This document shows, one piece after another, positions 9,118-51,433 of a stretch of 64,000 bases of DNA. The stretch's first letter is position 1; each line of letters begins with the position of its first letter. The notes below the pieces were generated by a model that saw only the letters and a program-made list of their open reading frames with translations, was not told the DNA's origin and did no database searches. The position numbers were made by a program, and so were the translations under genes. Origin of the DNA: Bdellovibrionales bacterium (GTDB taxonomy: Bacteria > Bdellovibrionota > Bdellovibrionia > Bdellovibrionales > UBA1609); the NCBI GenBank assembly GCA_965205645.1, contig OZ242172.1:120863-184862 (forward strand). Reading direction: 5' to 3'.

Positions 9118-10407
9118 TTAAGCAATTCCTGTAGAAGATATAGGTGTTTTATTACTCTTTATTTTCCGGCTATAAACAATATGTGGTTGTTTACGCTCTA
9201 AAATCACATCTTTCGTGATAACACATTTCTGGATAGAAGGATCGGATGGAGCATCATACATAATGGTTAACATAGCTTCTTCAATAACCCCTCTTAAGCC
9301 CCGCGCACCCGTTTTCTTTTGAATAGCTAGCTGCGCGATGGCCTCTAAAGCTGCTGGTTCAAATACAAGGTCCACTCCTACTTGTCGCATTAATTTTTTA
9401 TATTGTTTCACTAATGCATTTTTAGGCTTCTGCAAAATATCCACCAGCGCTCTCTTATCCAATGGATCCAATACAGCCACAACAGGTAGACGACCGATAA
9501 ATTCTGGGATTAAACCGTAACGAAATAAATCACTCGACTCTACTTTTTTCAATAAATTATGTTTGAGATGTATTTTTTCCTTATCTGTTTTGATATCTGC
9601 AGCTATTCCCATCGCTCGGTGAGATATGCGATTTTCTATAATATTTTCCAAGCCAACAAAAGCTCCTCCGACAATAAATAAAATATTGGAAGTATCTACT
9701 TGAATAAATTCCTGTTGTGGATGCTTTCTTCCTCCTTTAGGTGGCAAGTTAGCAACAGTGCCTTCTAGAATTTTTAGCAAAGCCTGTTGTACTCCTTCAC
9801 CACTAACATCCCTTGTAATAGAAGGATTTTCCGATTTACGAGTTATTTTATCTATTTCATCAATATAAATAACCCCTCTTTGGGCTTTCTCCACATCATA
9901 ATTAGCTGCCTGTAGTAAATTCAAAATCACATTTTCCACATCTTCTCCAACATAGCCAGCCTCTGTGAGAGCTGTTGCATCTGACATCGCAAAAGGCACT
10001 TTCAATATACGCGCAATCGTTTGAGCTAAAAGGGTTTTTCCAGAACCAGTCGGTCCAATCAGCAAGACATTGCTTTTAGTAATTTCTACATCTTCTTCAT
10101 CCTTAGAAGTCATACTAATAGAAGATGTATCCACTCGTTTATAGTGATTATACACAGCAACCGACAGGATTTTTTTAGCCAGTTCCTGGCCAATAATATA
10201 ATCATTCAGATGCGCATGAATCTCAGCAGGCGTGGGAATAGTAGGTAAAGGGGATTTACTTTGCGAATGACTCACTTCTTCCGCAATCAGTTGAACACAT
10301 AAATTAACACATTCATTACAAATACAAACCCCATCTCCAGAAATAAGATTTGCAACTTCTTTTTTATTTTTTTGACAAAAACTACAACTATACTTTTGTG
10401 TGCTCAT
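9118..10407 (-). CDS. clpX: ATP-dependent Clp protease ATP-binding subunit ClpX
   Basis: Zinc ribbon 'CSFCQK...CICNEC', Walker A 'GPTGSGKT', 'IYIDEIDK', 'GARGLR'. Confidence 0.97.
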
Positions 10408-10600
10408 ATATTCACTTTCTTTCGACTGGACACAATATAATCCACTAAGTAAAAAGTCAAAACCCTCTTTGCACTTATTGGATAATATCTTTTCATCCTT
10501 CCCATAGTTTTGTTCCTGTCTTTATATGTCTCTAACCTAAGCATGACAATATACCATTTTTAGTCCCTACGAATAAATATCGTAGCTTCTTTCCTCTCAT
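10404..10600 (-). pseudogene. clpP: internally deleted clpP relic whose stop still overlaps the clpX start codon
   Basis: Minus-strand translation gives 'EERSYDIYS*' (intact ClpP: 'GERSYDIYSRLL'). After a frame change it gives '[35 protein letters not shown]' (intact ClpP: '[34 protein letters not shown]'). The TGA at 10406-10404 overlaps the clpX ATG (ATATGA). The catalytic core (~130 codons) is missing. Confidence 0.75.
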
Positions 10601-10765
10601 TGGAATTTATTTGGATGCTAGTGAAAAGCTATTGCTCCTTCATGGCTCCTGCCAGACTTAAGTTCTGTTCATTATATCCGGCGTATGTCTTTATTAATGT
10701 ATATGTCGGGTATCTCTTACAGGCACTTAAGCGATTATAATAATATTGGAAACAATACTAGATGA
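10601..10765 (-). repeat. degenerate second copy of the clpP 5' UTR/promoter region (original about 12556-12720)
   Basis: Collinear anchors are shared with 12556-12720: AAGGAG RBS, 'agacttaagtt', 'atgtcttta', 'atatgtcgggt', 'cacttaag', 'ggaa.aaatacta.atgaaa'. Confidence 0.65.
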
Positions 10766-10769
10766 AATA

Positions 10770-11723
10770 TTAAAAAATGAACCTCACATGTTTATCCTGT
10801 TCCATAAAATCCTTCAATATTTTATGGATATCCTTTGTCATATCAGAATATTTATAATGTTCAAAACAGGAACTTTTTGACTGGAAATTTTTACATTGCA
10901 TGGTTTCTACTCTACGTTCACGTGCGTATTCCAAAATATATATCTTATCGGATATTAAATCAGCCATAGAACGACAACTGGATTTTAGTGTTTGATAGCT
11001 TACGTAATTCGCACTAGGAAAGAAGTCTGTTCGCTCATAAAATGTTAACTGGTCTACACAACTTTTAGCTGCTTTATTAATAGCGCTTAGAACAGTTGAT
11101 ATTTCCTGCTGCTGAGCAACGGAGGCGTCAATCATGCTATCCATAAACAAGTAAGTATATCTTACAAAGTAAAGCATAGGCAAATTGACAAATACAGAAA
11201 CACTTATGTCACTTTGAGGAATTTTTTCATCCATGATAGATGGATTTTTAAGAGTAAATTGAATGAGCTGAGCGGCATTTTCATAATACACAATAGCTTC
11301 ATTAAAATTAACAAAATATATAGATTCCTGAAGGGAATTATATAAGATATTTTGAGACGTATCTAAAGTTTTATTTGTCAAATAATACACTCCCATCCAA
11401 TAATTAGCTGGAATGTAACCTAAATGGGCGGCTTTTTTGATATACTGAATACCTTCCAAATCTATTTCTCTTCCAATAAAAAAATCAATTTCTTCATTAA
11501 GAGATCTAATAAATTCTTGTACCAAATTGGATTCTTCTTGCTCTTTTGCCTTCTGATCACATAGATAGCGAAGCCCTAAATAATAATACTGTTCAGCCGT
11601 CATATTTTCCGTTTCTCTTAAAGGAGCATTTGCAGCTCCTAAACAGTCTATATCAACATCTATCTTCGCATAGACAAACAAAGGGCTTACGATTCCTATC
11701 AGAAATATTAAAAATGATTTCAT
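10770..11723 (-). CDS. secreted Sel1-like repeat protein (paralog of 27464-28522)
   Basis: Likely start is Met25 (ATG at 11723), giving the signal peptide 'MKSFLIFLIGIVSPLFVYA'. Sel1-like 'IKKAAHLGYIPANYWMGVYYL' and 'FNEAIVYYENAAQL'. Collinear similarity to the 352-aa ORF at 27464-28522. Confidence 0.6.
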   Translation of the reverse strand: MKSFLIFLIGIVSPLFVYAKIDVDIDCLGAANAPLRETENMTAEQYYYLGLRYLCDQKAKEQEESNLVQEFIRSLNEEIDFFIGREIDLEGIQYIKKAAHLGYIPANYWMGVYYLTNKTLDTSQNILYNSLQESIYFVNFNEAIVYYENAAQLIQFTLKNPSIMDEKIPQSDISVSVFVNLPMLYFVRYTYLFMDSMIDASVAQQQEISTVLSAINKAAKSCVDQLTFYERTDFFPSANYVSYQTLKSSCRSMADLISDKIYILEYARERRVETMQCKNFQSKSSCFEHYKYSDMTKDIHKILKDFMEQDKHVRFIF

Positions 11724-11949: not shown

Positions 11950-12555
11950 TTACACATTGACTTTTTTCCGACTGGATACAATATGATCCACTAAGCGAAA
12001 ATTTAAAGCTTCCTTAGCGCTCATGTAACAATCCCGATCCATTGCTTCTGTAAGTTCTTTTTCTTTTTTACCCGTATGTTTCGCATAAATTTCCGCCATT
12101 TTTTTCTTTGTCAGTGACATCTCCCGAGCTTGTATTTCAATATCACTCACTTGTCCGGATAACCCCTCTCCTGCAACATGCGGCTGATGAATCATCACTC
12201 GTGCGTGAGGTAAGATATATCTTTTACCAGGTGCTCCGGAAGCTAGTAACAGAGAACCCATACTGGCAGCTAGTCCAATACAATAAGTTCTCACATCACA
12301 CTTAATAAACTGCATAATATCATATAGTGCGATTCCCGCTGTCACACTACCCCCTGGAGAATTAACATAAAGATGAATATCCTTTTCTGGATTATCCATT
12401 TCCAAAAAGAAAATTTGCGCGATGATGCTGTTAATCACCTCATTAGTCACTGCCGTGCCCAGCATAATGATACGATCTTTCAACAGCCGCGAATAAATAT
12501 CGTAACTTCTTTCCCCTTTCGGGGTTTGTTCAATCACAATAGGAACGAGGACCAA
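11950..12555 (-). CDS. clpP: ATP-dependent Clp protease proteolytic subunit ClpP
   Basis: 'VPIVIEQT..GERSYDIYSRLL', 'NSPGGSVTAG', Ser in 'AASMGS', His in 'MIHQP'. TTG start 6 nt after AAGGAG. Confidence 0.95.
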   Translation of the reverse strand: MVLVPIVIEQTPKGERSYDIYSRLLKDRIIMLGTAVTNEVINSIIAQIFFLEMDNPEKDIHLYVNSPGGSVTAGIALYDIMQFIKCDVRTYCIGLAASMGSLLLASGAPGKRYILPHARVMIHQPHVAGEGLSGQVSDIEIQAREMSLTKKKMAEIYAKHTGKKEKELTEAMDRDCYMSAKEALNFRLVDHIVSSRKKVNV

Positions 12556-12812
12556 AATAAACTCCTTATTTAACTGATTAGACTTAAGTTTTATTTACTA
12601 TATTATCTTGATGTCTTTAACACTATATGTCGGGTGTCTTGTGTATTCACTTAAGCCCTTATTTGGAATAAATACTAAATGAAAAACTTAGGATAAAGGT
12701 TTGTCCGCTCATTGAAAATATGTTACACATCATCCACTGATCAAAACAGTGAGTTTTAAGCGATTACTACATATAAAAACATAACTAATCACTTAACAAG
12801 GAGTACAGAATA

Positions 12813-14303
12813 GTGAAATTAACTATTTCCAGTTCGACAGATGGCCATCCAGCTTGCCAAATCGTCTTTGCATCTAAAAAAGGAGCAACAGACCTGAAGT
12901 CCGTTCCAGCACTCGCCCGCTTAGTCACACAACTAAATCAACAAAAAATATTCACTGGCCGATTAGAGGAAGCTTTATTTATTCCTTGTGGAGGATTAGG
13001 AAAAGCTAAACATTTACTCTTGATTGGCTTAGGCGATCCAGGAAAAGTTAATCCTGAAGTGATTCGCGCTGCCTGTAGCAAAGCGATTCGGAAGTTAGAA
13101 ATACATCAACAAGAATCAGCGAGCTTGGATTTTTCATTGCTTCTTCCTTTTATTAAGAACTCACAAAATCTAGCATCAACGATTAGTGAAGGATGTCTTT
13201 TAGCAGCTTATCACTTTACTAAGAAGCAGAAAAAAAACAAAAATACTGGAAGCGTCAAGCAGATCACTCTTCTTCGCACAAAAGATAATGTAGCTATTAA
13301 AAAAGGGCTGGCACAAGGATCCGCTGTCGCTGAAGGAGTTAATTTTGCACGTTGGCTGGCCGATCACCCGCCTAATCTAATGACTCCCACTATATTAGCA
13401 ACAGAAACACAAAAAAAATGTGAGAAAATAAACGGGTTAGAAATCACTGTATGGAATAAGGCGCGCATTACAAAAGAAAGAATGGGTGGAATCTTAGGCG
13501 TGTCAGCGGGTAGCAATCAAGAACCACGAGTAATGATTATGAAATATCAACCGACGGGTGCAAAAGGAAAACCAATTTGTTTTGTCGGTAAAGGACTCAC
13601 TTTTGATTCTGGCGGAATCAGTCTTAAGCCAGCGAAAAATATGGATGAGATGAAATTTGATATGTGTGGAGGAACGGCAGTGATCGGAGCGTTGCTGACT
13701 ATTGCACGTTTAAAACTCAATGTGCCGGTTTTAGGCTTAGTGGGAGCTTCAGAAAATATGCCGGGTGAAGGGGCAACAAAGCCGGGAGATATTTTAACCG
13801 CTCGCAATGGAACAACAATGGAAGTGTTAAACACAGACGCAGAAGGACGGTTGGTATTGGCAGACATTTTATCTTATGCTAGCGAACAAAAACCAGAATG
13901 GATTATAGATGCCGCCACTTTAACCGGGGCTATTGTAGCTGCCTTAAGTAATATTTATACCGGCTTATTTACTCGCCACCTAAGTCTTAGAGATCAAATT
14001 CAAAAAGCAGGTGAAAATGTAGGAGAAAAAATCTGGGCAATGCCGTTAGATGATTTTCATGTAAAGGACATTCAAAGTACAATAGGAGACGTCGCCAATA
14101 TATCATCTGTTTCCGGTGGAGGCAGCTCTACCGCTGCTGCATTTTTAGAGCATTTTGTGGACAAACATATCCCGTGGGCACATTTGGATATTGCCGGTAC
14201 CGCTTGGAATGTATCTAATCGTCTAGCTTACTGTCGGCCTAAGTCGGCATCCGGAGTCATGGTGAGAACTTTTGTTGAACTTGCCCGCACACATATCCGA
14301 TGA
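12813..14303 (+). CDS. pepA: leucyl aminopeptidase (M17)
   Basis: 'VGKGLTFDSGG', 'NTDAEGRLVLAD', 'DIAGTAW'. GTG start. Confidence 0.9.
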   Translation: MKLTISSSTDGHPACQIVFASKKGATDLKSVPALARLVTQLNQQKIFTGRLEEALFIPCGGLGKAKHLLLIGLGDPGKVNPEVIRAACSKAIRKLEIHQQESASLDFSLLLPFIKNSQNLASTISEGCLLAAYHFTKKQKKNKNTGSVKQITLLRTKDNVAIKKGLAQGSAVAEGVNFARWLADHPPNLMTPTILATETQKKCEKINGLEITVWNKARITKERMGGILGVSAGSNQEPRVMIMKYQPTGAKGKPICFVGKGLTFDSGGISLKPAKNMDEMKFDMCGGTAVIGALLTIARLKLNVPVLGLVGASENMPGEGATKPGDILTARNGTTMEVLNTDAEGRLVLADILSYASEQKPEWIIDAATLTGAIVAALSNIYTGLFTRHLSLRDQIQKAGENVGEKIWAMPLDDFHVKDIQSTIGDVANISSVSGGGSSTAAAFLEHFVDKHIPWAHLDIAGTAWNVSNRLAYCRPKSASGVMVRTFVELARTHIR

Positions 14304-14310
14304 TTCTAGC

Positions 14311-15024
14311 ATGACGTATAAAAAATTTTTCAAAGATAAACGGCTATGGATAAGCTTGTTGTCTCTATGCACATTTTTAGTGGGTTACCAGATTGCTGAA
14401 AAATCATGGGATAAAGAAATCTTTATTTACTTAAACCCTGCTAGCGCCACAACAGCATCTGTTAGAAATATAGCTAGCTTACAAAGTTCATCCATTAAAC
14501 TACCTTCTTCTTTAATATTAAAAGAAGGAGCTCTTAAGAAAGAAAGTCAGAAAGATTTTGTCCATGCCTCCTACGTGAAGCATCAAGGACCAATGATTCA
14601 TTTATATTTAAGTCGATTTATTACACCCACAAAAGACGGAGGATACACACCTCCCTGCCAACAGTATCAAACAATTGATATTATATTTACCGCGCACCGT
14701 GAATTTATTCACGGACATGAACCGAAAATGAATTTAAAAACACCGTGTATTGTTAATACAGAAAATCCCGCTCTCTTAGGACCCTTTGCTATTCCTAAAC
14801 ATCGTATTCTTACGTCCCCCATCCGGCGACAAGTGTTCCACTCTCCTTTAGTGCAACCACATGAGGGCAAAGCAACGTTATTATTTAGCCATCTAGGATT
14901 ATCCTGGCCCACTGAATGGATTCTCACACAGCTAAGATTTAGTAACAAAAATGATAAGAAGGACCTATCTATTTATTTTTCTTCCGACCGACCGGAAGAT
15001 TATCTCACACTCCATTTAAAATAG
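14311..15024 (+). CDS. hypothetical membrane-anchored protein
   Basis: Start taken at Met14 (ATG 14311), giving 'MTYKKFFKDKRLWISLLSLCTFLVGYQI' with one N-terminal TM. No recognisable domain. Confidence 0.45.
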   Translation: MTYKKFFKDKRLWISLLSLCTFLVGYQIAEKSWDKEIFIYLNPASATTASVRNIASLQSSSIKLPSSLILKEGALKKESQKDFVHASYVKHQGPMIHLYLSRFITPTKDGGYTPPCQQYQTIDIIFTAHREFIHGHEPKMNLKTPCIVNTENPALLGPFAIPKHRILTSPIRRQVFHSPLVQPHEGKATLLFSHLGLSWPTEWILTQLRFSNKNDKKDLSIYFSSDRPEDYLTLHLK

Positions 15025-15095
15025 CCCCCTCAAAGGGAGAGTGACTTCGCCGCGATTCCTTGCATGCATGTCACAACTTTGCAAATTACTTGAAT
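15025..15095. repeat. dispersed repeat unit U1 (intergenic copy)
   Basis: 'ccccctcaaagggagagtgacTTCGCCGCGATTCCTTGCATGCATGTCACAACTTTGCAAATTACTTGAA' shares its core with units at 25146, 44446 and 44503. It starts right after the stop codon at 15022-15024. Confidence 0.7.
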
Positions 15096-15115
15096 CTCTC
15101 TATTAAATTAAAAAA

Positions 15116-16348
15116 TCAAACGGAAGATAAATGTTGTGTTTCATAGGCTAAAGCTAAAACACCCAAATAAGCCACCCATCCATACACATTTTCCATAGGA
15201 TTACCTTCCACTTCAATCTCTAAATCAGAAACGCAAAGTGTGCGATACACTGCCCCCGGACTGTTTAAATTATCTTTCGTCCCTTTATCCTTATGCGTGC
15301 GCAAAAAACCACCCACAAGATCACCACCAATTAAATAAATCACCGGTTCTGACACTGAACCTTTTGTTTTTAAATGAGAACTAATCCCCTCTTGAATAAT
15401 TAATTCCGTCACTTGTGCTCCACCTTTAGCTGCTTTCATTTTCTTCTTAATTTTATAATTCCAATGATCAATATCTTCAGAAGAATGAATAGTTGTCATC
15501 CCCAAACCATAGGTACCAGAATTGTTTTTTAAAAACACAAAAGGTTTTTGCCCTAATTGCTGATACTCCGGTTGTAATTTTTTTAAAAAAATATCTACTT
15601 GCTCTTTTAAGCGTTTTAAACACAATGAATCATGGACATTGAACTCCGTAAACCTCTGTGTCTGAATGGTTAAAGCGCTGGAATGAATATGTATTAACTC
15701 AGCAAATTCAACAGCTAATTTATTATATGTATGAAAAAAAGTATGTTTTTTTCGATTCTGCCAACCGGTGACAGGAGGAGGAATAACCGGCACGGAAAAT
15801 TGTAGATCATAATTAGTTGAAAAATCATTATTACTAATCACCAGATCTGCACTATCCATTTTATTCTTTAAAAGAGATACCTTCAGCGTGCGACCAGATG
15901 CTGTAGCCAATATCCGATCCTTTAAAATAATCTCACCTGGGACACACACTTCTACCTTTGGTGCAGAGAATTGTTTAGTGGAATGCATTTTCCGCAGACC
16001 GTTTTGAATGAGTGTTTTTAACGTATACACATTATCCCAATAAAAAGGATTATGTGTGTGTTCTTCCGCCAATAAAATAACATTTGCCGCTGCCGGATAA
16101 TATGTTTTTAAATAACGATATATGAATTCCGGTGCAGCTTCCCGATCCACTTCACAAATATTATTGAATCCGGCTGGAAATAAATTAGCATCTACCGGTG
16201 TGATTTTACGTGCAGAATCCCGTAAATCAAAACTAGAATAAAAAGGGAATAATAAGCCACTCGTTTTTTGATGAAACCAATTAAGCGCAGAATCATAATA
16301 TTTCACAATATTATGATGAATAGTATCTTTTATCACTTGCTCTGGCAT
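15116..16348 (-). CDS. probable glutamate--cysteine ligase (small GshA type of the Acidithiobacillus ferrooxidans family)
   Basis: The N-terminal 'FDLRDSARKITPVDANLFPAGFNN' resembles what I recall of that GshA family. About 410 aa. The call rests on memory of the family pattern only. Confidence 0.5.
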   Translation of the reverse strand: MPEQVIKDTIHHNIVKYYDSALNWFHQKTSGLLFPFYSSFDLRDSARKITPVDANLFPAGFNNICEVDREAAPEFIYRYLKTYYPAAANVILLAEEHTHNPFYWDNVYTLKTLIQNGLRKMHSTKQFSAPKVEVCVPGEIILKDRILATASGRTLKVSLLKNKMDSADLVISNNDFSTNYDLQFSVPVIPPPVTGWQNRKKHTFFHTYNKLAVEFAELIHIHSSALTIQTQRFTEFNVHDSLCLKRLKEQVDIFLKKLQPEYQQLGQKPFVFLKNNSGTYGLGMTTIHSSEDIDHWNYKIKKKMKAAKGGAQVTELIIQEGISSHLKTKGSVSEPVIYLIGGDLVGGFLRTHKDKGTKDNLNSPGAVYRTLCVSDLEIEVEGNPMENVYGWVAYLGVLALAYETQHLSSV

Positions 16349-20415: not shown

Positions 20416-20449
20416 AACCACTGGATACTCATCTATCAGAGTTTAAGCA

Positions 20450-21409
20450 TTAGCTATGAGCTGCGTCCAAACGTTTTTGTTGAAACTGATGAATAAACAC
20501 CACGAGAGGTGTTGCGACATAAATAGAAGAGTAAGTACCTATTAACACCCCTACTCCTAATGTAAAAGCAAAATCTTTAATCACTCCGTCTGTAAAAAAC
20601 CACATCACTCCCACAGCTAACATGGTTGTCAGAGAAGTTAAAAGTGTACGAGATAATACATCATTAATGGAACGGTTACAGATAGCGCCAAACCCCATTT
20701 TTTTACCAAAAAAAGCTTGATTCTCCCGAATACGATCAAAAGTTACAATCGTATCATTCAGCGAATACCCTATAATGGCAAGTAGAGCAGCTAACGTCTG
20801 CACATTAACTACCAGATGAAATACAGTAAAAACCCACATGGTCCAAACTGCATCGTGAAACAAACAAATCACCGCCGGCGGAGCAAATTTGTAATCAAAG
20901 CGCAAACCAACGTAAATTAAAACCATAATTAAACTATAAAAAACAGCTAACAGCCCTTTTGTTCTTAACTCTGCCCCAATTTGAGGCCCTACAGAATCCA
21001 CACGTCGCACTTCTATTCCTTGATCCGCAAAATCTTTTTTTAAAGATTCCACCAAGAGTTCCACTTGATGAAAAGTTGTTCCAGTAGAATGCACCAGATC
21101 CCCATCATCCTTACCACCGGTTTGACCGGTTCTAATGAGAAATTCATTATCCTCACCATATGTTTGGACAGAAGGCTTTAAAAATCCTTTTTCAGAAATG
21201 TAGTTTCTAAATGTTTCTATCTCCGGCGGCTGCTGAAAACGCACTTGAATTTCATTCCCACCGACAAAATCAATGCCATAATTAAAACCTGCGATACTGA
21301 TCCATATCAACATCCCTATTGCCAATAAAAGAGAAATAGAAGTCACATAAGCAGAATAAGAAAGAAAATTAAACTCTCTTTTTTCTAGTGATTTTTCACG
21401 TTGTTTCAT
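20450..21409 (-). CDS. secF: protein translocase subunit SecF
   Basis: 'GIDFVGG', 'YSLNDTIVTFDRIRE', six TM segments, adjacent to secD. Confidence 0.93.
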   Translation of the reverse strand: MKQREKSLEKREFNFLSYSAYVTSISLLLAIGMLIWISIAGFNYGIDFVGGNEIQVRFQQPPEIETFRNYISEKGFLKPSVQTYGEDNEFLIRTGQTGGKDDGDLVHSTGTTFHQVELLVESLKKDFADQGIEVRRVDSVGPQIGAELRTKGLLAVFYSLIMVLIYVGLRFDYKFAPPAVICLFHDAVWTMWVFTVFHLVVNVQTLAALLAIIGYSLNDTIVTFDRIRENQAFFGKKMGFGAICNRSINDVLSRTLLTSLTTMLAVGVMWFFTDGVIKDFAFTLGVGVLIGTYSSIYVATPLVVFIHQFQQKRLDAAHS

Positions 21410-24405: not shown

Positions 24406-26343
24406 ATGATTTACTTAATCATTGGACACCGTGGTACAGGAAAAACATCTTGGCTTAAAAAAATAAAAAAACTGTTTAAAAGCAAAGTAATCCTCTTAGA
24501 TTTGGATAAAGAAATTATAAAACGTGATGCTTCCTGGAAAGCCAATATATGTTGGAATAAAAACGTTCCACCCATCAATAGATGGTTTTTAAAGAGCCAA
24601 ACACAATTTCGCCGCCTTGAGCGAAAAGTGCTAATGGATTTAATCCATCAATACCAATCACAAAAACAAGACACATTTATTGCTGTTGGTGCTGGAGCAA
24701 AAATTAACCCAAAAGGATGTTATGTGCTGCATTTGATTCGTGAAACCGATTCGGATGGCAGGGTATTTTTAGATCGTCCGCGGCTAAACCCGAAATTAAG
24801 CCCTTATGAAGAGTCCCTGTTTTTATATTCCAAACGCGAGAAATATTATCAGCAAGTGCGGGATGAAAGTTTTATTTTACCAGAGCAGGACATGACTTTC
24901 ACAGAATCGGAAAAAATTTTTTTTGGATTAAAAGAAGGGCAGCTAGGAGCTAGCATCACTTTAAATAAAAACACTTTACCTAAAGATCCTAATAAATGGC
25001 CGACATTTATTAATAAACGATTAAAGTGGGGACTACGGTTTTTTGAATTTCGGAATGATGAATGGAGCCTGGCATCCTTAAGAAAAGGCCCTGGGAAAAA
25101 TTTGTTAAACCTTATCCCAAAAAAAAAACAACTGTTTAGCTTCCGCCCCCAGAGGGGGTCACTGCGCCGCGATTCCGCCGCTCCGATGTCACAACTTTAC
25201 AAAACATGTTTACAAACCTCCCGCTCGCTAAAAAAATTATCGATTGCTACCTGGGATTGGATGATAGAAACAGGGCCACCGCCTGCTGTTCCCCCCATCT
25301 TATCCGCGCATCATAGAAATGGAAAAAATCTTCGCCAAATATGCAAAGAGTTTTTAAAATATAAAGCGGATCACTATAAACTAGCCATCCCTATAAAAAA
25401 TTTGAAAGAACTTTTAGAAGGTCATTTATGGTTTTTAAAAGATCCAAGCCGTCGATCTTTTCTACCCACGTCTTTAAAGCAAGCGACCGATGATTCTTTT
25501 TCCTGGCGATGGTATCGGCAAATTTTCGGCCCGAAAATGCACTTAAATTTTATCAGAGAATCAAGAGGGCAGGGATTAAAAGATCAAGCTTTTCTATGTG
25601 AAGTCTTTGAGAGAAGAAAACCAACCAGTCATTTAAAATTTGGAGCCGTACTTGGCCTACCCGTTTCGCATTCCGCAAGCCCGGGGTTTTATAGAAAGCT
25701 CTTTGCTAAACATAAGATGATTTTTACTAAAATACCTTTAACGGAAAAAGAATTTACAAAAGATCATTTACGTATTTTACAAAAAATGGGTTTGGTTTTT
25801 GCAGCAGTCACCTCGCCACTAAAGAAAAAAGCATGGATGATTTGTGATCAAATGGATACCAATGCACGTAGATTTCAATCAGTGAACACTTTAATTTTTA
25901 AAAACAAAAAATGGTTGGGCAGTAATACGGATTTATTTGGCGCAAAAACTTTGTTAAAAGCAGCAGGTCTCGGCAGAACGTTTCATCCGGAGCAAATAGT
26001 GGTATGGGGTGGAGGGGGAACAAGAGCTGTTTTAAAACATCTAATGCCTTTAGCTACTTTTTACTCTGCCAGATCCAAACAAAAAATATTTGGAAAAAAG
26101 CAAAGTATCCGACCAATAGTTATTATATGGGCAGTCGGACGAAGACGCATGTCTGATAATATGTTTCCTTTTATGAAATGGCGCCCACGGACAGTGATTG
26201 ACTTAAATTACACAGTGGATTCCCCGGGAAGGGAGTATGCCATGCAAACTGGCGCAAAATACATTTGCGGCACGCAAATGTTCCAAGCACAGGCGGAAAA
26301 GCAGGAAGAATTGCTATTAAAACATTATCCCCTAAAAAAATAA
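24406..26343 (+). CDS. trifunctional fusion: shikimate kinase / type I 3-dehydroquinate dehydratase / shikimate dehydrogenase
   Basis: N-terminus has P-loop 'GHRGTGKTS' and 'FRRLERKVL' (AroK-like). The middle has 'ILSAHH...ADHYKLAIP' (AroD type I-like). The C-terminus has 'GLPVSHSASPGF', 'AAVTSPLKK', 'SVNTL', 'GSNTDLFG', 'WGGGGTRA' (AroE). It starts 2 nt after the aroA stop. Confidence 0.8.
   Translation: MIYLIIGHRGTGKTSWLKKIKKLFKSKVILLDLDKEIIKRDASWKANICWNKNVPPINRWFLKSQTQFRRLERKVLMDLIHQYQSQKQDTFIAVGAGAKINPKGCYVLHLIRETDSDGRVFLDRPRLNPKLSPYEESLFLYSKREKYYQQVRDESFILPEQDMTFTESEKIFFGLKEGQLGASITLNKNTLPKDPNKWPTFINKRLKWGLRFFEFRNDEWSLASLRKGPGKNLLNLIPKKKQLFSFRPQRGSLRRDSAAPMSQLYKTCLQTSRSLKKLSIATWDWMIETGPPPAVPPILSAHHRNGKNLRQICKEFLKYKADHYKLAIPIKNLKELLEGHLWFLKDPSRRSFLPTSLKQATDDSFSWRWYRQIFGPKMHLNFIRESRGQGLKDQAFLCEVFERRKPTSHLKFGAVLGLPVSHSASPGFYRKLFAKHKMIFTKIPLTEKEFTKDHLRILQKMGLVFAAVTSPLKKKAWMICDQMDTNARRFQSVNTLIFKNKKWLGSNTDLFGAKTLLKAAGLGRTFHPEQIVVWGGGGTRAVLKHLMPLATFYSARSKQKIFGKKQSIRPIVIIWAVGRRRMSDNMFPFMKWRPRTVIDLNYTVDSPGREYAMQTGAKYICGTQMFQAQAEKQEELLLKHYPLKK
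25146..25216. repeat. dispersed repeat unit U2 (in-frame inside the aro fusion)
   Basis: 'cccccagagggggtcacTGCGCCGCGATTCCGCCGCTCCGATGTCACAACTTTACAAAACATGTTTAC'. Translated as 'PQRGSLRRDSAAPMSQLYKTCL'. Confidence 0.7.
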
Positions 26344-26378
26344 CTGAAAAGAATACCAAAATTGTCTATAAAACCTTT

Positions 26379-28881: not shown

Positions 28882-30534
28882 ATGTTATTTAAGATGCAAA
28901 CCTATAAAAAATACAGCTCTCAGCTATCTGATAAAATTTTTAAACCAGCTTATTATATTTTATTTCTACTGAGTTTAATGTACTTTTATTCTGCTGCTGT
29001 TGCTGAAGAAAAAGCTACTAATAATGACCAAGCAAAACAACAAGCTCCAACGACTACATGCGACAGCATCATTCCCACACCAGAAGAAATCATAGAAGAA
29101 TGCTTTGATGAAAAAGCACCAGAAGTAGCAGAAGATGAAACAACTCAAAGCTGTGGTGGACTAGTCCAAAAAGCGGTTACCTGTTGCCAGACTCCTCTTC
29201 AGGGATGTATGGATAGCAGTCAAGTAGAAAGTGCGCTAGGCGCAGGACATGAAAGTCTTGGAATGCTTAATCAGCTCTTGCCAGCACTGAGCCCTGGCAT
29301 CGCAAACTATGCGGCAGAAAGCGGGATTGCAGATATTTGCCAAATGATAGCCGCTTTAACAGGAGCTGCCAGCTCTCTTTCCGCAGCTGCTAAGGCTAAT
29401 TGCTCTAGTGCTATGGGCGATTGCCAAACCGGCTGTGCAGATGAAATACTCTCTAAGTGCCAAAAAATAAAAGACATAAAATACAAGAAGTGGAAACCAA
29501 AAATATGTCAGGAAGTTTCTGATACTGCTTGTAAAACAGCACAATGTGGAACAGACACACTACCTTTAGACGTATGCATCGAAGAATTTAAAGCAGAAAT
29601 AACAAAAGAAATAACATATATACAACGCCGTAAAAAGCAGCAGTGTGAGTGTGGCAGCCAAGCGAGTCAACTAGCTCACATGGATCAAAACATTGCTCAG
29701 TCCGCCAGTAGTCTTCAATCTGCCAGTGACTGCTTAACCGGAATTTCAGACGGAAAATTTGCCCGCACACAAGCAGAATGCCTTATGAAAGGAAACGCGT
29801 TTCAGTGGAGAGGAGTAGGAAAGTTCGGCCAATGTATTAGCCTGGCTGCTGAATGCACAAAACATGGAGGCACTTGGGCACCTATTAGAAACACTTGTCA
29901 GACGAGCAGGCAAGCATGCTCTACCACCGGTGGAAAATGGGACCCACAGAAACAAGGATGTGACTACAGCAAATCTACAACTAATACAGAGACTAATACT
30001 AATACAGAAGATTGTCCGGAAGGCCAAGCCAGAAAAAACGGTGTGTGTGTGCCTTCCACTTCAGATGATGCAACAAACGACTCCTTTGGAGGCGGAGGAT
30101 CAGATAAAGATCGCGCCACCATTAGATCACCTTCTATTGCCCTACCTGGCACAGCATTGCCAGGAATGGCGACAGCATCAAATAGTCCAACAAACCCCTC
30201 AGCTCTTAAAGGAAGCGCCGGATCTGGATTTAGAATCCGTTCCTTGCGGCTCCCTAATTCTCCATCCAAAGAAGAAGAGGAAGAAGATAGCGACGACTAT
30301 TCATCTTCCGGTGGAGGTGGTGGATTTAGAGGATACTCCGGTGGTAGAGGAGGAGGGGGATCATACAATAGCAACTCCAAAAGAAAACTCGCTGGCCGTC
30401 TCAAAAATAAAAAAGGCAAAGCAATTATTAAAAGAACCTCTAACCTGGCCGGTCAAAACAAACACCATAGTATTTTTGAAAGAATTACCAAACGTTTTCA
30501 TCAACTCTGCGCCCATAAGATAAACTGTCATTAA
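28882..30534 (+). CDS. secreted Cys-rich protein with Gly-rich/'FRGY'/Lys-rich tail (P1)
   Basis: Signal/anchor 'YYILFLLSLMYFYSAAVA' and more than 30 Cys. Shared module 'QWRG...C.SL..EC...GGTWAPIRN.C' and tail 'SSGGGGGFRGYSGG...KNKKGK...SIFERITKRF' with the next gene. Confidence 0.6.
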   Translation: MLFKMQTYKKYSSQLSDKIFKPAYYILFLLSLMYFYSAAVAEEKATNNDQAKQQAPTTTCDSIIPTPEEIIEECFDEKAPEVAEDETTQSCGGLVQKAVTCCQTPLQGCMDSSQVESALGAGHESLGMLNQLLPALSPGIANYAAESGIADICQMIAALTGAASSLSAAAKANCSSAMGDCQTGCADEILSKCQKIKDIKYKKWKPKICQEVSDTACKTAQCGTDTLPLDVCIEEFKAEITKEITYIQRRKKQQCECGSQASQLAHMDQNIAQSASSLQSASDCLTGISDGKFARTQAECLMKGNAFQWRGVGKFGQCISLAAECTKHGGTWAPIRNTCQTSRQACSTTGGKWDPQKQGCDYSKSTTNTETNTNTEDCPEGQARKNGVCVPSTSDDATNDSFGGGGSDKDRATIRSPSIALPGTALPGMATASNSPTNPSALKGSAGSGFRIRSLRLPNSPSKEEEEEDSDDYSSSGGGGGFRGYSGGRGGGGSYNSNSKRKLAGRLKNKKGKAIIKRTSNLAGQNKHHSIFERITKRFHQLCAHKINCH

Positions 30535-30550: not shown

Positions 30551-31747
30551 ATGGTTAAAAAATTAAATAGCGACTCACTATTTGCAATTAAGCACTTTAT
30601 CATAACTTCTTTTATTATAATCTTTATTGTTGTTCCCTTTCAATCCAAAGGAGCAGATAGCGCATCTAAAATTGCAGACGATACTTCTGCAGGACAGAAA
30701 ATGATTTCAGGAGTAACTGGCATAGCTGCAGGTGCTGCTGGAATGAAAGCAGTGGCAGCATGCAGTGGAAAGCCTAACCCCTCTTGTAAATATTATGTTG
30801 CTTTAACTGCCGGTTTGACCGGAGCAACTTATTTACTAATGAGCGAATCTACAGCTAATAAAGATTTAGCTGCACAATACCAGGGCAACTGTATAATCAA
30901 AGGCCCTGCCTATCAGTGGAGAGGAAGTGAATCATACGGTGTATGTGTGAGCCTGTCGGAAGAATGTACACAGCTGGGAGGTACGTGGGCACCTATTAGA
31001 AATAGATGTCTACTGCCGGAGGAAGCGTGCACTAATATTGGCAGAACATGGAATCCACAGACACAAGAATGTAATCTAATAGATCCAGATTCATCAGATC
31101 CTAATTCTGATCCTAATAAAGACACTAATAAAGATAACTGTCCGGCCGGTAAAATTAGAATAGCTGGTCTGTGTAAAACTCCTACTCCAGCAGAATGCTT
31201 ACGGCACGGAAGAGAAATGTTAAACGGCAAATGCGTAGAAGGACACGGAGGCGGTGGAGGATCAGTTAAAAAACTGGAAGATTTTTTTAAGAAAAAAGGG
31301 ATTAAATGGAATCCTAAAAAGCAACAAATCACTTTGCCAAATGGTATGACTGGCTTTGCAAAAGATATGGACAAAGCATTAAAGCATTTATCTCCTCAGC
31401 AGCTTCAACCTTTTAAAGATGCTCTTTCATCCGCAGCAGCAAAACTATCCAAAAATAATAGTAACAGTTTAGATAGTGATGAATCTGCAACAGACTCTTC
31501 CGGTGGAGGAGGAGGTAACATCTCCAAAAGCTTTAAAGGTTATACGAGCGGCAGAAGCCGCGGGCAACGTGGATCCTCCGGATTAAATTACTCCAATATG
31601 CTGGCGCAAAAACAAAAAAATAAGAAGTTAAATAAAATGACGGTTAGAGCAGGGAATGATCAAGTGGGCATTAGTCAAAATAATATTTTTCAAATGATTC
31701 ATGCTAGATACCAAAGCAAAAGACAAAAAAAGGAATTTGTTAAATAA
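30551..31747 (+). CDS. secreted Cys-rich protein, paralog of P1 (P2)
   Basis: AAGGAG RBS 8 nt upstream. 'CIIKGPAYQWRGSESYGVCVSLSEECTQLGGTWAPIRNRC' matches P1 'CLMKGNAFQWRGVGKFGQCISLAAECTKHGGTWAPIRNTC'. Tail 'SSGGGGGNISKSFKGYTSG...KQKNKKLNK...NNIFQMIHARY'. Confidence 0.6.
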   Translation: MVKKLNSDSLFAIKHFIITSFIIIFIVVPFQSKGADSASKIADDTSAGQKMISGVTGIAAGAAGMKAVAACSGKPNPSCKYYVALTAGLTGATYLLMSESTANKDLAAQYQGNCIIKGPAYQWRGSESYGVCVSLSEECTQLGGTWAPIRNRCLLPEEACTNIGRTWNPQTQECNLIDPDSSDPNSDPNKDTNKDNCPAGKIRIAGLCKTPTPAECLRHGREMLNGKCVEGHGGGGGSVKKLEDFFKKKGIKWNPKKQQITLPNGMTGFAKDMDKALKHLSPQQLQPFKDALSSAAAKLSKNNSNSLDSDESATDSSGGGGGNISKSFKGYTSGRSRGQRGSSGLNYSNMLAQKQKNKKLNKMTVRAGNDQVGISQNNIFQMIHARYQSKRQKKEFVK

Positions 31748-43715: not shown

Positions 43716-45368
43716 GTGAAGATAGCTCTAGCCCAAATTAATCCTTCTATGGGGAATATTTCCCTAAACCAAAAAAAAATTTTAAACTGGTGTTTAAAAG
43801 CCAAAAAACAACAAGCAGACTTAATTATTTTTCCTGAGATGGCTACCAGCGGTTATTCACCACTAGATATATTAAAACAAAAATGCTTTTTACAGAAAAC
43901 ACAAGCAGCCGTGCAAGCGATTTGCCAACGTCTGCCAAGCGGACTAAGTGTTATTTTAGGTAGCCCAGCAGGTCATACGCCACCAGCAACAAATAGTGCA
44001 TTTGTTCTACAAAAAAACAAATGTAAAACATACTCCAAACAAATCCTCGCAGACTACGACGTCTTTGACGAAAAAAGATATTTTAAAAAAGGCTTATTAA
44101 AAGATAATTTTTTCTATTTACAAAAAATAAAAACACAGCTGCTGATCTGTGAGGAAATGTGGCAATTAGAAAATCATCACATCCAGCTAGATAAACCTCA
44201 GCTCATCATTAGCATTCACGCTTCCCCTTTTGAAATATATAAACATAGAAAAAGAGAAATGATAGCTAGCCGGCTAGCTCAAACATACCAATGCCCATTG
44301 ATTTATGTGAATTTAATCGGAGGACAAGAAGAACTTATCTTTGACGGTGGAAGTTTTATCCTTAACCCCCAAGGAGAAAAACTATATCAAGCGCCATTTT
44401 TTAAAGAACATTTAACAATAATATCCATCACCCCACCAAAGAAGGTACCTTCGCCGCGATTCCCTGCACCTATGTCACAATCTTACACATCAAGTTTACC
44501 AAGTGACCCCCTCTGGGGGCGCCGCGATTCCTTGCACCCATGTCACGACTCTGTAAATTATGTTCACTTAATATCTGCTCTAGTATTTGGAATCAAAGAA
44601 TTTGTACGTAAAAATAATTTCAAAAAAATACATTTAGGGCTTAGTGGTGGACTAGATTCTGCTGTACTTAGTCACCTGGCCTGCCAGGCATTAGGTGCTA
44701 AAAATGTAAGCCTCATTTTTTTACCAGGGCCTTTTACTTCTTCACTTTCTTTTAAAGCGGTTCAAGATTTATCCAAAAAACTTAACTGCCAACTATACAC
44801 TTATAGTATCACTCCTACTTATCAACGAATTTTAAAAAATTGGCCAAAAGGCTTTGGGAAATCACGTGCCAGGAGTAAAGAAAATCTACAAGCTAGAATC
44901 CGATGTCTTTATCTAATGGCATGGTCCAACCAATATCCACAAAGCCTGCTGCTTGGATCATCTAACAAAAGTGAGTTGTCATTAGGTTATGCCACCTTAT
45001 ATGGCGACCTAAGCTGCGGACTTCTACCTATTGGAGATCTATTTAAAACAGAAGTTTTACAGTTAGCAAAGCATCTTAAACGTCCTGCTATTCCTCATGC
45101 TATTCAACATCGCCCCCCCAGTGCAGAATTAAGAGCAAATCAAACAGATGCACAAGATATTCCTCCTTATCAAGTATTAGATCCAATCCTTAAAAAACTA
45201 ATAGAGCTTCAAAAAGATCCTCAAAATAAATTAGAAAAAAATATTTTCAAACAAATATTACTTAGCGAATTTAAAAGACGGCAAGCTGCACCAATACTAA
45301 AAGTTAAAGAACGTAGTTTTGATAGAGGCTGGAGATATCCTCTTTCTGTTCAACCAAAGTTTTTTTAA
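43716..45368 (+). CDS. nadE: glutamine-dependent NAD+ synthetase
   Basis: CN-hydrolase half ('DLIIFPEMATSGY', 'LLICEEMW') and NAD synthase half ('GLSGGLDSAV', 'SNKSELSLGYATLYGD'). GTG start. Confidence 0.9.
   Translation: MKIALAQINPSMGNISLNQKKILNWCLKAKKQQADLIIFPEMATSGYSPLDILKQKCFLQKTQAAVQAICQRLPSGLSVILGSPAGHTPPATNSAFVLQKNKCKTYSKQILADYDVFDEKRYFKKGLLKDNFFYLQKIKTQLLICEEMWQLENHHIQLDKPQLIISIHASPFEIYKHRKREMIASRLAQTYQCPLIYVNLIGGQEELIFDGGSFILNPQGEKLYQAPFFKEHLTIISITPPKKVPSPRFPAPMSQSYTSSLPSDPLWGRRDSLHPCHDSVNYVHLISALVFGIKEFVRKNNFKKIHLGLSGGLDSAVLSHLACQALGAKNVSLIFLPGPFTSSLSFKAVQDLSKKLNCQLYTYSITPTYQRILKNWPKGFGKSRARSKENLQARIRCLYLMAWSNQYPQSLLLGSSNKSELSLGYATLYGDLSCGLLPIGDLFKTEVLQLAKHLKRPAIPHAIQHRPPSAELRANQTDAQDIPPYQVLDPILKKLIELQKDPQNKLEKNIFKQILLSEFKRRQAAPILKVKERSFDRGWRYPLSVQPKFF
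44446..44567. repeat. two tandem units (U3a, U3b) of the dispersed repeat, in-frame in nadE
   Basis: U3a is 'taccTTCGCCGCGATTCCCTGCACCTATGTCACAATCTTACACATCAAGTTTAC'. U3b is 'gtgaccccctctgggggcGCCGCGATTCCTTGCACCCATGTCACGACTCTGTAAATTATGTTCAC'. Confidence 0.7.
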
Positions 45369-51086: not shown

Positions 51087-51305
51087 TTATCTTTTTTTTC
51101 TACGAGCTTTTTTCTTACGAGCAACTTTTTTCTTACGAGTCACTTTTTTCTTACGAGCAACTTTTTTCTTACGAGTAGTTTTTTTCTTACGAGCAACTTT
51201 TTTCCTTCTTGTTACTTTCTTTTTTCTCTTAGTTACTTTTTTCCTTCTTGTTACTTTCTTTTTTCTTCTTATCACTTTTTTTCTTCTCTTTTTTTTAGCA
51301 GGCAT
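51087..51305 (-). CDS. extremely basic K/R-rich hexapeptide-repeat protein (H1-like nucleoid protein candidate)
   Basis: Start preferred at ATG 51305 after GGGAGGA. The product is 'MPAKKKRRKKVIRRKKKVTRRKKVTKRKKKVTRRKKVARKKKTTRKKKVARKKKVTRKKKVARKKKARRKKR'. The DNA shows an 18-nt periodic repeat 'cttacgagcaactttttt'. A terminator follows. Confidence 0.65.
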   Translation of the reverse strand: MPAKKKRRKKVIRRKKKVTRRKKVTKRKKKVTRRKKVARKKKTTRKKKVARKKKVTRKKKVARKKKARRKKR

Positions 51306-51433
51306 TGCATTCCTCCCTATGTTGAAACATGATGAAAATATTTTCATCGGTTGCTTTTCGCTTTAGTTTTACTTCAAGCTTGCCAACAGTCAATAAAAAA
51401 TATGGTTTCTTTTTTGCATAAGAGTTTTTTATT

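Follow-up and report, generated by a model that had tools for sequence, protein, structure and literature searches.

Tandem units of a dispersed, hairpin-punctuated repeat in the NAD+ synthetase gene of a Bdellovibrionales bacterium

Two repeat units in the nadE linker

The window analyzed here is a 64-kb stretch of the 1.56-Mb source genome of a Bdellovibrionales bacterium, and the in-genome copy counts given below are those of this window alone. It contains nadE, the gene for a glutamine-dependent NAD+ synthetase, whose product combines a CN_hydrolase domain (residues 2 to 239; Pfam PF00795, 2.7e-20) with an NAD_synthase domain (residues 286 to 523; Pfam PF02540, 6.8e-58). The nearest solved homologue (PDB 5kha) aligns to NadE in two blocks, 2 to 242 and 282 to 543, and the inter-domain linker is 39 residues long in the window NadE, as opposed to 14 in 5kha. 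Within the sequence encoding this linker, a 137-nucleotide (nt) segment (positions 44431 to 44567) is made up of two head-to-tail, in-frame units, a and b, of a repeat that we term S (Table 1). An initial annotation of this DNA had proposed two such tandem units, and both lie where it placed them, with the open reading frame (ORF) 43716-45368 reading through the pair (...PPKKVPSPRFPAPMSQSYTSSLPSDPLWGRRDSLHPCHDSVNYVHLISAL...; the peptide expected from read-through of the insert is, for example, SPRFPAPMSQSYTSSLPSDPLWGR). AlphaFold2 renders residues 243 to 277 as coil with a predicted local distance difference test score (pLDDT) below 50, and both flanking domains as confidently folded; on this model, the array would add a disordered stretch to an already variable linker. 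We infer that the insert is transcribed and translated with nadE as some 25 to 45 extra disordered residues.

An S unit consists, in order, of a short GC-rich hairpin, a core of the form CGCCGCGATTCC-N8/9-ATGTCAC, and an AT-rich tail that is weakly self-complementary (TTTGCAAATTATGTTTACCAAATGT); units are 68 to 105 nt in size and recur with a period of about 68 to 72 nt. Sharp conservation marks the core, a GC-rich 12-mer in a genome of 37% G+C, and the actual spacer from GCCGCGATTCC to ATGTCAC is 8 to 9 nt, not the 10 to 13 nt first reported. Unit a has its core at 44452 to 44463, ATGTCAC at 44472 to 44478, and a tail ending at 44505; the corresponding positions in unit b are 44520 to 44531, 44540 to 44546, and 44567. 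The leader hairpin of unit a proper (44431 to 44445) has decayed in the window, where it folds at only -1.9 kcal/mol, and the closest relative carries an intact leader, CCCCCTCAAAGGGGG-AGTGATTT, at the same position. The C5-N3-G5 mini-hairpin that the initial annotation attributed to unit b is present exactly as described, directly abutting the core in the manner of the internal hairpins of other arrays, and the two units together form a canonical two-unit array. With 68 nt (2 mod 3) between their core starts, units a and b occupy different reading frames over their whole shared length (PRFPAPMSQ versus RRDSLHPCH) and not merely part of it, as had been thought.

Several statistics set these units apart from chance. 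The 11-mer GCCGCGATTCC occurs four times in the window (at 15049, 25166, 44453, and 44521), always on the plus strand, against an expectation of 0.46, and none of 100 shuffles reached four copies. A profile of the unit run with nhmmer matched 15023-15105, 25141-25234, 44429-44507, and 44504-44580 with E values of 1e-16 to 1e-22 and found no fifth copy anywhere in the 64-kb window. The two further copies reported at 15025-15095 and 25146-25216 thus both exist, except that the first runs on to about 15135, taking in what is left of another module. S belongs to a composite, S(n)-P, and the long-hairpin module P is absent from the window save for remnant ends at 15093 to 15135. The catalogue compiled across the window and the loci of its relatives holds 37 S units (at least 37 S units and about 12 P modules in all), and in 29 of the 37 the core is immediately preceded, on its 5' side, by a stable GC hairpin.

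Folding of the unit, a check that had been recommended, showed that S copies in the window are no more stable than their shuffles (z scores of -0.8 to +0.9), the only structure being the 13- to 15-nt GC hairpin; the S unit itself is not palindromic. Across copies, the hairpin end and the AT-rich tail do not form an inverted repeat, and a GTGAC/GTCAC stem inside S is not conserved. Four reading frames of S, the three sense frames and one of the antisense frames, are free of stop codons.

Table 1. Repeat units and host genes in the 64-kb window
Positions	Strand	Feature	Basis
43716-45368	+	nadE, glutamine-dependent NAD+ synthetase, 550 amino acids (aa)	ORF, Pfam, and PDB alignment
44431-44451	+	Decayed leader hairpin of unit a (CCCCACCAAAGAAGG) and spacer TACCTT	Intact form in L001
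44452-44505	+	S unit a, core and tail, translated (S)PRFPAPMSQSYTSSLPS	Profile match, orthologues
44507-44519	+	GC hairpin of unit b, CCCCC-TCT-GGGGG, -8.3 kcal/mol	Fold; inspected sequence
44520-44567	+	S unit b, core and tail, translated RRDSLHPCHDSVNYVH, +2 register relative to unit a	Window specific
25141-25234	+	Single S unit in the 645-aa shikimate-pathway fusion ORF 24406-26343	Profile match, orthologues
15025-15135	+	S unit (15025-15092) and both ends of a deleted P (15093-15135)	Empty-site comparison; boundaries to about 3 nt

Filled and empty sites in related genomes

Filled and empty orthologous sites were found for all three window loci. The comparisons draw mainly on a sister genome, represented by loci L001 and L030 on one contig of sample ERZ25067264 that is 95 to 98% identical in nucleotide sequence to the window between 14.7 and 54.9 kb. 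The remaining relatives include L002, from sponge metagenome SRR1576521; L031, also from a sponge metagenome; and L032, a more distant relative with empty sites. The nearest named homologues of NadE and of the shikimate-pathway (Aro) fusion belong to Bdellovibrionales, Oligoflexia, or Pseudobdellovibrionaceae metagenome-assembled genomes (MAGs). These homologues spoke against a chlamydial origin, an idea prompted by the lysine-rich gene of 18-nt repeats at 51.1 kb. The lineage hosting the repeat has a small, AT-rich genome and is probably host associated, a lifestyle suggested by the recovery of one relative from a sponge metagenome.

Linker length varies among the 19 NadE orthologues aligned, with unit a present only in the closest relatives and unit b only in the window, in agreement with the lineage-specific insert originally postulated. 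In L001, whose NadE is 96% identical in aa sequence, unit a keeps an intact leader and is followed only by a hairpin (CCGGCGAcTCGCCGG) and CGCCGC, so that the window and the sister genome differ by two units versus one. NadE of L002 (83%) has a decayed unit a and a second hairpin, and the position of unit b is occupied in both relatives by just a hairpin (CGGCGAcTCGCCG) and CGCCGC. In L004 (80%) and L005 (62%), no unit is recognizable. Read from these alignments, the units are insertions and not an ancestral linker, since distant NadE proteins lack them. The shorter nadE state is common to L001 and the outgroup L002, and parsimony therefore favors the gain or replacement of unit b in the window lineage. 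Tandem repeats are error prone in assemblies, and an artifact could have duplicated one here, but unit a and the other two sites recur in independent assemblies from three other samples, and 22% of positions distinguish units a and b, with the ORF intact, making misassembly scarcely credible.

Local expansion of the linker by tandem duplication or slippage, as in a minisatellite or other variable-number tandem repeat and with no mobility involved, would match the head-to-tail arrangement and regular period of the units, and unit number varies between near-identical genomes as it does in slippage-prone arrays. The identities of the units largely refute this origin: unit a shows 96% identity with its orthologue in L001, but unit b shows just 78% with unit a and more (85%) with copies at other loci, and therefore b is not a recent local duplicate of a. 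The unit is also found at unrelated loci and genes in both orientations, and slippage, which may tune the length of an array, cannot account for that dispersal; purely local expansion is accordingly very unlikely.

The single S unit in the aro fusion has its hairpin at 25146 to 25158 and its core at 25165 to 25176, and a 1-nt indel causes it to be read first in the frame of unit b and then in that of unit a (RRDSAAPMSQLYKTC). The same site is empty in L032 (LFSFRKKKASGIKDISLHHWDW), holds one S and a 135-nt P in L031, and holds two S units and a P in the sister genome (L030), as opposed to S alone in the window. The window copy resembles the product of a deletion between the direct TTTGYAAAT repeats that flank P, and its divergence from the orthologous units in L030, which far exceeds that of the flanking sequence, suggests replacement or gene conversion of the units. 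Between the aro fusion and the chorismate synthase gene, L030 has about 1.4 kb of additional sequence (12172-13640, compared with window 26325-26359); this segment contains two minus-strand ORFs of 147 and 151 aa with no Pfam hit and is absent from the window.

The third site lies between convergent genes, where the copy starts immediately after the stop codon of ORF 14272-15024 and its reverse strand supplies the last five residues (HLSSV) and stop codon of GshA (15116-16348, minus strand; donated portion, 15116-15135). The L032 site is empty (CATTTAAGATAG-ATT-GCGTTTCATAGG), and GshA there ends in SILNEG*. This comparison of empty and filled sites, based on a relative of about 60% aa identity, yielded no convincing target-site duplication. 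The site is also filled in L030, with an identical core, and in L031, with a longer copy that has kept part of P. The two convergent genes that the insertion separated overlap in L032.

The nifU-secF spacer spans 56 nt in the window (20417-20473) and about 320 nt in L030 (5744-6068) and L031 (5700-6045). In the longer spacers, a P hairpin precedes a decayed S unit that lies in reverse orientation, and the window spacer resembles the empty one of L032. Across these sites, whole units would be gained and lost within arrays, and P would disappear through deletions that join the short direct repeats (TTTGYAAAT...) on either side of it. The claim that the repeat is dispersed holds in that profile copies occur at several loci and are polymorphic between genomes that are 95 to 98% identical.

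The composite element and its copies inside genes

Arrays follow the order leader hairpin-S-(hairpin-S)n-P, with n = 0 to 2. Leader hairpins have the form C5-8 N2-5 G5-8 and are followed by an 8-nt spacer, and internal hairpins are exemplified by CCGCCGACTCGGCGG. P is a long hairpin of 125 to 135 nt (-55 to -67 kcal/mol), bordered on either side by direct TTTGYAAAT repeats that are perhaps part of the S tail. Its arms are complementary, with the conserved part central and the outer sequences differing between copies; in particular, the sequence of the outer 28-bp stem varies while complementarity is kept. In an alignment of eight copies, both partners have changed in 22 of the 51 pairs, and pairing is kept in 95.8% of cells; no such values were obtained in any of 500 column shuffles, and sliding the 3' partners reduced pairing to 34 to 53%. 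The conserved center is asymmetric and includes a helix of 9 bp whose three invariant G.U pairs would be lost on the opposite strand.

Modules also occur in other combinations. In L034, a contig from the sample that yielded the sister genome, one P hairpin (approximately 480-700) contains an S unit within its apical loop. P is more widely distributed than S: a contig from sample ERZ21862620 with 43% G+C (L112) has two P modules in opposite orientations and no S units in 13 kb. On this contig, positions 10578-10907 fall in a pilin-like ORF with an N_methyl motif that combines a long FTALPLYR tandem repeat with the two P modules. Elsewhere in L034 (15996-16106), two S units overlap tail to tail as an inverted pair.

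The compensatory changes in P, together with the conserved G.U pairs in a helix that has mismatches on the other strand, are what would be expected if S and/or P acted as a functional nucleic acid, such as a hairpin affecting mRNA stability or translational pausing, a small RNA, a guide or recognition structure in a mobile system so far unrecognized, or a repeated protein-binding site; conservation would in that case stem from this function and not from selfish spread alone. The sharp conservation of the GC-rich S core in a genome of 37% G+C and the punctuation of units by hairpins fit the same idea. However, copies lie in unrelated housekeeping genes in both orientations relative to transcription, several have decayed or been deleted without loss of the gene, and the window has no intact P. 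The central helix, being invariant, provides no covariation evidence of its own, and hairpins serving mobility would yield the same covariation in the stem. Rfam covariance models identified only tRNAs in the window at the gathering score and overlapped none of the S and P copies in L033 and L034 at an E value of ≤1, and a hammerhead-type core (CUGANGA...GAAA) was absent from P by eye. We consider a function of this kind unlikely.

Most catalogued S units (28 of 37) are inside called genes, and the genes carrying copies are nadE, the aro fusion, those for triose-phosphate isomerase, a Mur ligase, gamma-glutamyltranspeptidase (GGT), and a PALP enzyme, and two hypothetical ORFs. A protein search with concatenated six-frame translations of the element against a database of 5.8 billion sequences, which is not a census, returned seven proteins at an E value of ≤1, single units of 20 to 25 aa being too short to reach significance. 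It retrieved the triose-phosphate isomerase, the Mur ligase, and the pilin-like protein with P and S peptides. L033 and L034, low-coverage (2 to 5x) long-read contigs from the same sample as L001 and L030, were found through such in-frame peptides and add at least 33 S units and about eight P modules, with 27 S units in 18.6 kb of L034. The GGT gene on that contig (13793-16147) encodes 784 aa and reads through eight S units and one P.

Nine S units are in the sense orientation, in all three phases, and 21 are antisense, essentially in the single stop-free antisense frame. As S is free of stop codons in these four frames, the frame in which it lands hardly matters. P copies within genes leave the reading frame of the host uninterrupted, whereas both of the intergenic P copies are closed by stops in each of the six frames, a pattern expected if ribosomes read through the insert and selection removes stop-bearing copies. 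Intergenic S copies also exist. The initial annotation had suggested that the constraint is the absence of a stop codon and not the function of a peptide, and the use of three sense frames and one antisense frame within genes, along with the intergenic copies, argues for the same conclusion.

Two proposals about the product bear on these frames. Ribosomal bypass is known from GC-rich 'byp' inserts in yeast mitochondria and from T4 gene 60, and the GC-rich hairpins in essential genes of this AT-rich genome resemble such settings, so the insert might be skipped by ribosomes or else removed from the mRNA like an intron. Array lengths nevertheless preserve the downstream frame, in-gene copies keep the host frame open in the face of the closed intergenic P copies, and the units fall short of the size of group I or II introns and have no match among ribozyme or intron families; an untranslated insert is highly improbable. 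More improbable still is that the repeat was selected as a linker or interaction peptide common to several proteins. Certain insert peptides do recur (RRDS..., PRFPAPMSQ, and KHNLQSRDMGA), and P encodes helix-prone peptides, but the same DNA is read in four frames and orientations and also lies between genes. The DNA of the units is more conserved than the peptide across frames, the AlphaFold model of NadE shows disorder, and insert-free orthologues are otherwise conserved enzymes.

As for the wider distribution, S was seen only in the window genome, sample ERZ25067264, and sponge metagenome SRR1576521. The pattern CGCCGCGATTCC-N7-10-ATGTCAC gave 23 singletons among GTDB representative genomes, all in unrelated high-GC taxa, and a W-variant of it gave 77 singletons in a scan of Joint Genome Institute (JGI) metagenomes; these were rejected as chance matches, scoring at most 19.7 bits with nhmmer, as opposed to 50 to 85 bits for true copies, and having a median G+C content of 62%. 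A 22-mer from P had no matches in the JGI metagenomes, and blastn of the composite element against PLSDB plasmids was also negative. The view that the sequence belongs to no named family is thus borne out in Rfam, PLSDB, GTDB representative genomes, and JGI metagenomes. Among the papers found in the literature, general treatments of Rickettsia palindromic elements (RPEs) and of transposable elements of the miniature inverted-repeat type (MITEs) contained no description of the S/P family.

Relation to known repeats and nature of the family

The best-known cases of selfish repeats that colonize essential genes in frame come from Rickettsia and Wolbachia. RPEs are abundant in both intergenic and coding regions, and the unrelated housekeeping genes into which they are inserted in frame are not destroyed by them (PMC1779305, PMC10969869). 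S/P shares with RPE-1 to RPE-10 and with the protein-coding palindromic repeats of Wolbachia a short, non-autonomous, multicopy, and lineage-specific character and residence in a small AT-rich genome. Like RPEs, it is an interspersed multicopy repeat in the size class of about 100 to 150 bp (68 to 105 nt for S and 125 to 135 nt for P), and its insertions into unrelated protein-coding genes preserve the host ORF. The parallel with RPEs drawn at the outset therefore stands with respect to in-frame, lineage-specific, and dispersed occurrence, but not with respect to form: the S units of nadE are not palindromic and are one module of a larger composite, and it is P that constitutes an RPE-sized palindrome. 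Unlike RPEs, which belong to Rickettsia and other Rickettsiales, S/P resides in a Bdellovibrionales/Oligoflexia-like lineage and is modular, with hairpin-punctuated tandem arrays of the form S(n)-P. The likeness is to the described behavior of RPEs, and the distinction is drawn from palindromicity and host.

Other repeat systems match individual features of the composite. Internal tandem units of about 45 to 70 nt are found in BOX elements as in S arrays. The BOX elements of Streptococcus pneumoniae, boxA-(boxB)n-boxC, further resemble S(n)-P in having end modules, a variable number of internal tandem units, hairpins, and insertions of one element into another (PMC10969869). In contrast to BOX, which is essentially intergenic and found in Firmicutes, about three-quarters of catalogued S units are in genes and read through, and the two have no sequence relation. 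MITEs such as Correia, ERIC, and Nezha, and repeats of the REP, BIME, and REPIN types, are likewise small, noncoding, repeated, and hairpin forming, and intragenic MITEs occasionally form in-frame fusions (PMC10969869, PMC2229807, PMC3184786). S lacks the conserved terminal inverted repeats of MITEs, and no clear target-site duplication was evident in the gshA comparison with the relative of about 60% aa identity. Its GC hairpins are similar to REP-like stem-loops but are part of larger units inside genes, whereas REP, BIME, and REPIN sequences are extragenic GC-rich palindromes of 20 to 40 nt that are usually accompanied by a RAYT transposase. Mycobacterial interspersed repetitive unit (MIRU) minisatellites consist of tandem units of 50 to 100 nt that vary in number between strains and keep reading frames open. 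These properties are shared by S, but MIRUs lie between the genes of operons and not in enzyme domains, and they have neither hairpin punctuation nor a long palindrome.

We assign a probability of roughly three in four to the reading in which the 137-nt segment of nadE comprises two arrayed units of a selfish, non-autonomous repeat family, one that is confined to this lineage and resembles RPEs in behavior without belonging to them. In the best-supported account, S/P is a family undescribed so far that parallels RPEs in an unrelated bacterial group and has a different modular build. Elements of this kind would land in, or survive only at, tolerant positions such as inter-domain linkers, loops, gene ends, and spacers, and they would spread by transposition or by gene conversion-like copying that depends on the hairpins.

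Several points weigh against this reading. Neither terminal inverted repeats nor a clear target-site duplication turned up for S; Pfam annotations of about 190 kb of relatives' loci and of the scanned window ORFs contain no transposase families, and neither a cognate insertion sequence nor a Y1/RAYT family member was seen in the annotated loci, so that mobility is deduced from distribution and polymorphism. The four units in the window occupy three sites, all of them common to relatives, and most insertions here are therefore old. Gain of unit b, favored by parsimony, has parallel loss as its alternative, and the hairpin and CGCCGC in L001 and L002 could be the stump of a second unit. The in-gene fraction in L033 and L034 is biased upward by their retrieval through in-frame peptides, and their assignment to the sister genome, suggested by the common sample, is tentative. 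That the insert in NadE is translated and harmless is likewise deduced from the DNA, and the strong covariation and conserved G.U pairs of P also fit a functional RNA.

The punctuation of arrays by hairpins, their change by whole units, the S unit nested in the loop of P, and the strand-specific features of P point tentatively to a hairpin-dependent and possibly single-strand mechanism. A more specific version, which we regard as doubtful, is that S(n)-P is an undescribed hairpin-guided mobile element copied via a single-stranded, strand-specific intermediate of RNA or DNA. Copying would then make use of the asymmetric center of P, with its three invariant G.U pairs, and of the GC hairpins of S, and units would be added one by one beside existing hairpins. 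If true, hairpin-guided copying would be a way to build tandem arrays in essential genes that is distinct both from RPEs and from MITEs with terminal inverted repeats and target-site duplications.

Under the selfish-repeat reading, S/P would represent in-frame colonization of genes outside the Rickettsiales. The instance in the window is modest, amounting to four units, old sites, and one lineage-specific unit, and colonization is heavier in the sister contigs, where the GGT gene holds eight units and a long hairpin. The modular anatomy, the whole-unit differences at 2 to 5% divergence, and the strongly covarying hairpin make the family a tractable system in which to study how elements move, how proteins tolerate them, and whether they seed new linkers or C termini, as in the C terminus and stop codon donated to GshA. 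Inserts of this type increase protein lengths and, in symbiont MAGs, can lead annotation and orthology calls astray.

The window contains further repeats outside the S/P family. Two short direct repeats, one at 10570-10597 and 12490-12517 (93% identical) and one at 10700-10738 and 12624-12662 (77%), have the same spacing in front of two minus-strand genes, upstream of clpX (9118-10407) and at the 5' end of clpP (11950-12555), where they may mark a shared promoter or operator region. A 115-nt direct repeat (29785-29899 and 30896-31010, 70% identical and 1,111 nt apart) falls in ORFs 28882-30534 and 30551-31747, which are probably tandem paralogues. On the minus strand at 51087-51347, an 86-aa ORF (or a shorter one starting at an internal Met) consists almost entirely of Lys/Arg repeats (KKKVARKKKVTRKKK...), its coding sequence being some ten tandem copies of an 18-nt repeat; the product resembles a histone H1/Hc-like nucleoid protein, and the sister contig has a 60-aa call at this position.

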